Assembly: GCF_003334385.1 (NCBI RefSeq) | Contig: NZ_QOWN01000141.1 | Source of the DNA: Escherichia coli | GTDB taxonomy: Bacteria > Pseudomonadota > Gammaproteobacteria > Enterobacterales > Enterobacteriaceae | Direction: 5' to 3' (one strand) | Length of the DNA: 951 nt | In this document: positions 1 through 951 of the stretch, piece by piece | How positions within the stretch are numbered: position 1 is the first letter of the stretch | Layout: each line of letters opens with the position of its first letter | Program-made: the position numbers and the translations under genes | The notes under the pieces: model-generated | The model's input: only the letters and a program-made list of their open reading frames with translations | Databases searched by the model: none | What the model was told of the DNA's origin: nothing

Positions 1-45
1 CCCCTGCAGCGGGTCATAATAGCGGTGGCGGTTGTAATACAGGCC
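1..45 (-). other. Start of the Rhs repeat-associated core terminal motif ([15 protein letters not shown]), truncated by the window edge
   Basis: Seen in sequence: codons 303-317. Established knowledge: in Rhs, TcC and teneurin-type YD proteins the YYxxRxRYYDPxxGR motif immediately precedes the conserved DPxGL core boundary, after which the variable C-terminal toxin begins. Confidence 0.8.
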
Positions 46-951
46 GGACTCCTCATCATACTGCTGCCCCGGCAGGCGGATAAGCTGCTGCAGCTGATGC
101 GGGTTCTCTTCATTCAGCAGGTTGCCCCATTCATCATATTCTGCGCACCACGCTGTTGCCCCTTCCGTGCTGATGAGCGCCAGCGGCAGGCCGCGATGGT
201 CGCAGTGGTACAGGTGGATTTTTCGCGCCGGCGTGTACACCGGGTCCATCTGGTTTTGCATCTGCTCCACGGTCAGGCCGCACGATGCCAGCCAGCGGCG
301 GCTTTCCTCACTCACCCGGTCAGCCAGGATTTCACTTTCCAGCCGGTCGAGCATCTGCACCAGCACCGGCGGGAACACCACACTGCCACCGTCTTCGCCG
401 CCGGACTGCTGAAGGGTATCCGCCAGGCTGCGGCGCTGCGTTTTCGCCAGCTCACCGGTGGCGGTTTCAACCCTGATGAGTGGCGTGAAGCTCCCCGGCT
501 GATAAATCGTCTGGATGCGGGTTCTGTCGTTCTGTATCGTGGTCAGGCGGTCGCCGTCCCAGCCGTACCAGGTCACTTGCGGTTTCCGTGACAGCGACAT
601 CCAGCCCGTCAGGTCCCGTTCACGCCGCCACACCCGTTTTGCCACCCTGCGGCCCAGCGGGTCGTAAAGATAGCGACTTTCGACCAGCGGCTCTTCATAT
701 TGTGTCCGCGTGTAGTGCACCAGCCGGTGCTGACTGTCGTAATGGTACCGGTGAGTCCGCTCATCATCCGTGCGGATAACCCCTTCCGGGATGAGGTCGG
801 TTTTCTCTGTCAGCCTGCCGTGACGGTCATACCGGTAAAGATAGTGCGCGTCACGGGCGATACGGTTATCCGGCCACATGCTGAGGGTGCTGTCCGGGTG
901 CAGCTCCGGGTCGGGCAGGCGGTTACCTGCCGGGTCTGTGGCATACGGGAT
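1..951 (-). CDS. rhs: Rhs-family protein (YD-repeat polymorphic toxin core), internal fragment; 5' and 3' ends both outside the window
   Basis: Seen in sequence: the reverse complement read in frame from position 951 gives 317 codons with no stop: [317 protein letters not shown]. It contains repeated YxYDxxGRL-type (YD) motifs and ends in the RYYDP motif typical of the Rhs repeat-associated core. Established knowledge: this motif series matches the enterobacterial Rhs core as I recall it. The paralog (rhsA, B, C, D type) cannot be resolved from 951 bp, so the symbol is given at family level only. The ORF track lists no minus-strand ORF, presumably because this frame has no stop inside the window. 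Confidence 0.93.
115..144 (-). other. YD-repeat motif (protein level): [10 protein letters not shown]
   Basis: Seen in sequence: codons 270-279; YDxxGxL pattern. Confidence 0.65.
187..216 (-). other. YD-repeat motif (protein level): [10 protein letters not shown]
   Basis: Seen in sequence: codons 246-255; Y-x-x-D-x-x-G-L spacing matches the YD repeat. Confidence 0.65.
241..420 (-). other. YD-free segment within the Rhs core (Gly/acidic stretch followed by a helix-prone stretch)
   Basis: Seen in sequence: codons 178-237, [60 protein letters not shown], contain no YD motif, unlike the flanking sequence. Inference: the composition (L, E, R, Q rich after a GG-E-D-GG stretch) suggests a helical insert interrupting the beta-rich repeat array. 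Confidence 0.5.
544..570 (-). other. YD-repeat-like motif (protein level): WYGWDGDRL
   Basis: Seen in sequence: codons 128-136; a degenerate YD repeat with W substituting for Y, in aromatic-x-aromatic-D-x-x-x-R-L form. Confidence 0.55.
652..672 (-). other. YD-repeat motif (protein level): YLYDPLG
   Basis: Seen in sequence: codons 94-100, followed by RRVAKRV; a YDPxG-type YD variant. Confidence 0.7.
721..747 (-). other. YD-repeat motif (protein level): YHYDSQHRL
   Basis: Seen in sequence: codons 69-77; YD core followed by a basic residue and L, the same pattern as the neighbouring repeats. Confidence 0.7.
811..843 (-). other. YD-repeat motif (protein level): [11 protein letters not shown]
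   Basis: Seen in sequence: codons 37-47 of the minus-strand frame; fits the Y-x-Y-D-x-x-G-R-L consensus of Rhs/YD repeats. Confidence 0.75.

Follow-up and report, generated by a model that had tools for sequence, protein, structure and literature searches.

The window, i.e. the whole stretch of 951 nucleotides analyzed here, is occupied over its full length by one coding frame. All 951 of 951 bases are open in frame 0 of the minus strand, which is read from base 951 to base 1 and comprises 317 codons with no end closed. The 317-aa product matches the NCBIfam profile NF041261, "RHS element core protein," with an E value of 3.3e-207 and a score of 691 bits over profile positions 913–1229 of 1261; approximately 32 core positions of the profile are absent past the last codon of the window. 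The whole-protein cut-off of this profile is 2000 bits and, hence, out of reach for a fragment of 317 aa. Further profiles match parts of the product: the first 42 of 76 model positions of TIGR03696 (Rhs_assc_core) with 37.6 bits against a cut-off of 32.5; Pfam PF03527 (RHS) with an i-Evalue of 5.2e-16; the YD repeat TIGR01643 with 31.1 bits; and PF05593, with weak matches at residues 38–52 and 66–83. The GC content is 62.0% and rises to 75.7% at third codon positions of the coding frame (GC3). The open frame is real Rhs core coding sequence and not a chance ORF, and the window is identified as an internal piece of an E. coli clade I Rhs core, an already known and ordinary sequence. All testable traits of the Rhs core family were found: the core match, the start of TIGR03696, and a multicopy GC-rich core set against AT-rich tips. 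A plus-strand ORF at 25–591 (188 aa, GTG start) was considered as a gene and rejected; it is most simply the shadow of the Rhs frame, an antisense ORF of GC-rich coding DNA whose opposite strand matches at E = 3e-207. The features are collected in Table 1.

Table 1. Features of the 951-nt window, in plus-strand coordinates
Feature	Position	Strand	Basis
Clade I Rhs core ORF, internal fragment, 317 codons, both ends open	1..951	-	Open frame; NF041261; 98.1–99.3% DNA identity to K-12 rhsA/rhsB/rhsC/ybfO
Codons of the 20-residue motif quoted by the initial annotation; last codon GGG (Gly) finishes at base 1	1..60	-	Translation
First 42 of 76 positions of TIGR03696, start of the C-terminal plug	4..138	-	Residues 272–316; 7pq5 alignment
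PF03527 "RHS protein" motif	109..219	-	Residues 245–281
Stretch without YD-type alignment to solved Rhs structures	241..456	-	Residues ~166–237; phmmer
YD repeat	703..771	-	Residues 61–83; TIGR01643
Gene-5' edge (ATCCCG...), switch point of ybfO-type orphans from AT-rich flank to core	946..951	-	K-12 ybfO versus full-length genes
Gene-3' edge; the source-type contig has 2 more bases (CG), then a base polymorphic among paralogues	1..3	-	Ten 953-nt contigs

The window codes for the last strands of the YD-repeat shell and for the first half (~46 residues) of the C-terminal plug, which is the aspartyl-protease domain. Its residues ~24–165 and 238–317 have their counterparts in the final shell repeats and the beginning of the plug of solved Rhs cores, at a distance reflected in E values of 1e-34 to 1e-5. 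In the alignment to 7pq5, query residues 254–349 fall on chain residues 1245–1342, and the plug starts near window residue 272, where TIGR03696 begins. In Rhs1 of P. laumondii, the plug/protease domain spans residues 1263–1357 (PMC8636562). Residues from ~166 to 237 or 247 are skipped in the phmmer alignments; over the same stretch, the Tse5 chain advances by 28 residues and the S. bongori core by ~6. Residues ~166–237, some 70 extra residues, therefore appear to form a clade I-specific insertion inside the shell region of the core. The motif at the end of the window aligns with the residues just before ryitqdpigl in the Tse5 and S. bongori Rhs cores. The initial annotation had described the minus-strand frame as reaching the left edge inside this motif, which translation and the NF041261 match confirm. 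It had also placed the motif at 1–45; the left edge is right, but these 45 bases cover only the last 15 residues of the 20-mer.

This segment is a repeat in E. coli. By megablast, it is found in 3888 of 5426 complete genomes at 20066 places—with a median of 5 and a maximum of 14 per genome—and the matches are annotated as rhsA, rhsB, rhsC, or "RHS element core protein." K-12 MG1655 carries full-window copies in rhsB (99.3% DNA identity), rhsA (98.7%), the orphan pseudogene ybfO (98.7%), and rhsC (98.1%); the orphan yibJ is a fifth copy, which covers the last 385 nt of the window (gene-oriented positions 567–951). Orphans of the ybfO type, in K-12 and MB50, span the window from end to end. Near-invariant cores bearing nonhomologous tips at several loci have been described for the clade I rhs elements (Jackson et al. 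2009, PMC2935791). The window shares with K-12 RhsA, RhsB, and RhsC the same NF041261 core positions and the GC-rich core that precedes AT-rich tips, without any structural difference. Set against these full-length proteins, it is missing the first three quarters of the core (counted from the N terminus) as well as the tip and the protease motifs; the N-terminal delivery domain lies >2.5 kb upstream of the window equivalent in the full-length genes. In the loci inspected, the rhs genes have no annotated vgrG as a neighbor. The orphans ybfO and yibJ are "dissociated" core–tip fragments, annotated as pseudogenes and followed by the small genes ybfC and yibG. In contrast to full-length genes, they have an AT-rich noncore flank upstream; the window alone fits either context. 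A 540-aa partial protein from a 1620-nt contig (P0083), labeled Listeria monocytogenes in NCBI, is 97% identical to the window translation and is probably E. coli contamination of the Listeria monocytogenes assembly.

The exact 951 nt occur in 0 of the 5426 complete E. coli genomes, in which the best match reaches 99.8%, and on none of the long metagenome contigs sampled, in which the closest copy (L113) has 1 mismatch. The exact DNA of positions 1–152 likewise has 0 matches among species-representative genomes. The sequence may be an unsampled allele or a consensus that arose from bubble popping across paralogues. The three best complete-genome matches have 2 mismatches each and lie at three loci: yibF-rhs-yibA, ybfA-rhsC-ybfB, and rpmE-rhs-metJ. 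The SNPs were considered as a means of placing the window at a single rhs locus; this was discarded, as these three matches tie and the terminal haplotype occurs with eight tip types.

The same stretch recurs as a contig of its own. L012 (ENA ERZ4561101, Hadza gut, NODE_60620_length_953_cov_17.69) holds the reverse complement of the window exactly, plus the two bases CG. The assembly collection has, in 80 of its blocks, an identical 317-aa product bounded by the contig ends; of the 23 contigs that were read, the ten listed all measure 953 nt. Contigs with the same ends and an identical protein occur in at least 23 assemblies of unrelated samples, among them SPAdes-style NODE_, "scaffold_," and Logan contigs. 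Identical DNA is established for one of these 953-nt contigs, L012, the others being compared by their identical protein. An exact look-up of a product with both ends open returns contigs of ~953 nt only and, hence, proves recurrence but not absence from longer contigs. A claim that contigs of ≥2 kb never contain the sequence was dropped as circular since a longer contig gives a longer product.

Both ends of the contig coincide with places at which the copies part. At the gene-5' end, K-12 ybfO reads ...GGGCATTGAT followed by ATCCCGTATGCC, whereas the full-length genes read ...GATATCCGC followed by the same ATCCCGTATGCC; the break is the first codon of the window. The same edge between orphan flank and core is seen in MB50 and, among the matches listed, in 17 of ~74 full-window metagenome copies, the other ~57 having core-type sequence upstream. 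At the gene-3' end, the ten 953-nt contigs all finish in ...CAGGGGCG. The first bases past the window are CGG in rhsA, CGA in rhsB and rhsC, and AGG in ybfO. Among 106 metagenome copies listed, position +1 is C or A in a ratio of 93:13 and position +3 is G or A in a ratio of 80:26; variable sites follow at +27, +33, +45, +46, +48, and +52 and are denser after, with full divergence beyond +96. In these copies, the spacing of variable sites past the window end never exceeds 24 nt, which is below common assembly k-mer sizes, so that the paths would be unable to rejoin. At least 23 metagenome loci start within 129 nt ahead of the window end, and seven keep exactly 53 nt—together with CG 55 nt, matching the overlap expected for k = 55. 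Two further contigs stop at +0 (L065) and +2 (L136).

On the copies compared, the 953-nt contig is the longest stretch common to full-length clade I cores and ybfO-type orphans. In all probability, the window is such a short-read contig (953 nt minus 2), that is, the near-identical 3' portion of the clade I rhs core copies, collapsed into one sequence. The assembly graph would fork at both contig ends, and the contig would stop there: at the gene-5' end, because the orphan flank splits from the upstream core; at the gene-3' end, because of closely spaced paralogue differences that run into nonhomologous tips. One sequence would then adjoin several different tips inside a single genome, and the window would be uninformative on which. 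Two partial proteins touch on this subject. P0001 (E. coli, 1588-nt contig) runs through ...YYDPLQGRYITQDPIG and then restarts exactly at the first residue of the window—a circular permutation of the repeat—and P0002 contains scrambled, reiterated pieces of the same core region. Both look like assembly artefacts in a collapsed repeat.

The window could, alternatively, stem solely from a silent 5'-truncated orphan of the ybfO type and thus lie outside an expressed full-length toxin gene. The ybfO-type homology covers the window and begins exactly at its gene-5' end, 12 of the 17 listed full-window copies with an orphan flank bear the ASKYGH tip, and the closest long copy, L113, bears this tip as well. 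However, the sequence upstream in L113 is core-type, and the K-12 and MB50 orphans are 98.5–98.7% identical to the window compared with 99.8–99.9% for full-length copies. Moreover, a contig derived from an orphan should run on into its unique AT-rich flank, yet the contig stops at the edge. An exclusively orphan origin is unlikely on these grounds, and the collapsed repeat common to both contexts is the preferred reading.

Past base 1, the relatives of the window continue in a regular manner. The metagenome contigs were scanned for the terminal 45 nt of the window, which gave at least 138 occurrences at at least 120 loci. Among 138 listed occurrences, the motif P....D..GL ends at +32 in 128—102 with a strict DPxGL and 26 with DSMGL—and at +33 in three, so that 131 reach the junction; five are cut by the contig end and two have an early stop. 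The typical continuation is RYITQDPIGL, 17 aa, and D(P/S)xGL. The three best complete-genome matches continue as RYITQDPIGLKGGWN.Y.YPL.Pxxxx-DPLGL, with the motif finishing exactly 32 residues past the window. The window, hence, stops 5 residues short of the first DPxGL motif, and in real genomes the toxin tip lies ~96 nt further on. In a phmmer comparison of the H8 continuation with PDB sequences, the solved Rhs core chains of Tse5 (8cp6_B) and S. bongori (8qjd_A and 8qjb_A) end at query residue 349, i.e. 317 + 32, on DPxGL.

The chemistry of this site has been characterized in two other systems. RhsA of P. protegens features the catalytic dyad D1324/D1346 and is cleaved after W1350; changing either residue from D to N blocks tip release and killing (PMC8765631). 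Rhs1 of P. laumondii carries two DPLGL motifs, 17 residues apart, and the substitution D1338N abolishes cleavage (PMC8636562). Since the E. coli continuations read DPIGL–17 residues–DPLGL, their catalytic Asp residues are expected at +6 and +28 (22 apart), with the cut after +32. The solved Rhs cores show the same geometry as predicted here: a dyad spacing of 22 residues and a cut 4 residues past the second Asp.

Before the ybfO-type tip (ASKYGH...), the junction reads PVQYIDSMGL, in which Ser replaces Pro after the second predicted catalytic Asp. This variant is seen in L002 (8823–8918) and L014 (8100–8195) and also on a full-length-type core (L113), and DSMGL is present in 69 of the 120 best protein cluster representatives besides the 26 metagenome occurrences. 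Junction scans should, hence, accept D[PS]xGL. The initial annotation had predicted, within a few tens of residues, a DPxGL boundary at which the toxin is released by autoproteolysis, with R-[YF]-x-x-x-DPIGL ahead of PxxxxDPxGL. The relatives bear out the distance and the order of the motifs, and the end points of the solved core chains agree with the cleavage site. In contrast, its proposal to abandon the reading if no DPxGL is found would wrongly reject 26 of the 138 listed occurrences (19%), namely those that read DSMGL.

The tips that follow the junction are AT-rich, ~120 to 180 aa long, and mutually unrelated. At least 12 tip types follow the terminal 45 nt; three merge in an all-against-all BLASTP comparison, which leaves ~10 families. 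The three best complete-genome matches alone bear unrelated tips of 131, 151, and 148 residues. With Pfam, 12 tip representatives gave DUF4329 in three and Ntox34, Tlde1, and Peptidase_M91 in one each; no Pfam family was found for the other 6 of 12, which include the tips of K-12 RhsA, RhsC, and ybfO, and NCBIfam gave 0 matches on 10 tips. The abundant tip types match tips annotated at loci of K-12, H8, MB50, and JNEC-KY203. The tips are followed by small genes: in most tip representatives, the next ORF starts between −35 and +15 nt from the stop codon of the tip, and yibA, ybfB, yhhH, ybfC, yibG, and dsORF-f3 are annotated after tips. Orphan core–tip cassettes are present downstream in K-12, H8, and MB50. 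Each copy would accordingly be laid out as RYITQ-DPIGL-17 aa-D(P/S)xGL, an AT-rich toxin tip, and a small immunity-type gene, often with orphan tip/immunity cassettes.

The transition from core to tip is accompanied by a gradient in GC content: 62% in the core, 40 to 50% in the 96-nt linker, 31 to 41% in the tips, and 31 to 34% in the next gene (L001–L003 and L016). The drop starts within the linker, which still codes for the conserved protease motif. Tip-linked DNA starts at about +45 nt, with CCGG in 34 of 34 SMWEDA copies and TTTC in 31 of 31 VDINLY copies among the metagenome matches listed. The low GC content of the linker and these tip-linked SNPs point to a cassette that includes the second half of the protease motif, and it seems that an exchanged cassette brings its own copy of this part.

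The core, in turn, does not tell which tip follows. Near-identical cores are joined to the tips ASKYGH (L113, 1 mismatch), EVFPRP, ETLKCI, and YEFKSK (2 mismatches each), and VDINLY (4 mismatches), and K-12 alone provides five continuations. Nor do the SNPs within the final ~115 nt of the window discriminate between tips: its own haplotype over the last eight variable positions (GCCTGTAA) is combined with eight tip types among the metagenome copies listed. Tip-linked DNA starts ~50 nt before the peptide junction, which renders core SNPs useless for guessing the tip. Because there are several copies per genome and near-identical cores carry unrelated tips, the adjacent toxin is not recoverable here; the question of the adjoining toxin has several answers, and none can be recovered from the window. 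This also serves as a caution: a short contig made up entirely of conserved Rhs core represents a collapsed repeat, for which "beyond the edge" has several answers.

The initial annotation had placed the window in one full-length rhs gene with its own, possibly novel, tip and immunity gene directly past position 1. Many of the copies are built in this way—131 of the 138 listed occurrences reach a junction and a tip, usually with a small ORF, and ~57 of the ~74 full-window metagenome copies listed have core-type sequence upstream—and three tip types (DLLSLP, LAFAIP, and SAWDDA) are singletons among the matches listed. Against this stand the end of the contig 2 nt past position 1, the median of 5 copies per genome, the five tips on near-identical cores, the terminal SNPs that do not discriminate between them, and the identity of the abundant tips with those at the K-12, H8, MB50, and JNEC-KY203 loci. 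Origin from a single gene of this kind is very unlikely. It is likewise very unlikely that one of the collapsed rhs copies bears a tip/immunity pair absent from all databases, although, if true, the contig would be the entry point to a new toxin.

As a whole, the interpretation given in the initial annotation is partly supported. It rightly stated that the window holds no toxin or immunity sequence and cautioned that nothing new can be claimed from it; that a variable tip and then a small gene follow is true of the relatives, which have unrelated AT-rich tips and an ORF within ~35 nt of the tip stop, and the orphan cassettes that it thought might follow are present in K-12, H8, and MB50. A single "directly adjacent" toxin does not hold for a repeat found at a median of 5 sites in each genome; as the window makes up effectively the whole 953-nt contig, the suggested extension by 1–3 kb has no sequence to draw on in this record. 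Nor can a full-length gene be presupposed, given that ybfO-type orphans cover the window and 17 of ~74 listed full-window copies have an orphan flank. The "potentially novel" part is unlikely to be so: the abundant tips correspond to ones already annotated in complete E. coli genomes, and several of the rest fall into Pfam families. The suggested search against toxin families, carried out on the tips of relatives, places 6 of 12 representatives in Pfam families and leaves 6 of 12 without one.

An insertion element or deletion that truncates the gene just past the window, leaving no junction or tip, is the case that the initial annotation named as refuting; it does occur, but in just 2 of the 138 listed occurrences, and for the window it is to be given next to no credence. 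In L125, the gene is interrupted 27 nt beyond the end of the window (oriented, window end 2455) and reads RYITQDPIG-PGKDHVTPVFCTK up to a stop; another ORF, a candidate gene for an ISAs1-family H-repeat transposase, starts ~90 nt on. In L092 (window end 4509), the frame diverges once past GWNLYG and meets a stop codon 27 residues beyond the window, shortly before the end of the contig. Remnants of ISAs1 and IS1 are annotated at rhs loci.

The window is a block common to full-length genes and orphans. Tips occur in both contexts: among the metagenome copies listed, the ratio of core-type to orphan-type upstream sequence is 6:12 for ASKYGH, 15:2 for VDINLY, and 14:1 for SMWEDA. In Salmonella Typhimurium LT2, a 522-bp block of 95% identity mediates the fusion of main and orphan rhs (Koskiniemi et al. 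2014, PMC3967940), and recombination across this shared core block loads the orphan tip onto the main gene (PMC3967940). The E. coli arrangement resembles that of LT2 by having a near-identical core block common to the full-length gene and a downstream orphan; the two differ in that the block is ~951 bp long and 98.5–98.7% identical in E. coli. By analogy, we infer that the block of the window could act as a homology arm for recombining an orphan tip onto a full-length gene. These results re-illustrate published facts on Rhs: the near-invariant clade I cores, the protease motif immediately before the tip, and the exchange of tips from one locus to another as well as between full-length genes and orphans.

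The junction motif itself differs between tips. Among the matches listed, the four "x" residues of PxxxxD travel with the tip in the other copies of common tip types. In L096, an RhsC-type PISNIDPLGL is joined to the YEFKSK tip, whose usual motif is PVNSMDPLGL—which points to an exchange with its breakpoint within, or immediately at, the junction motif.
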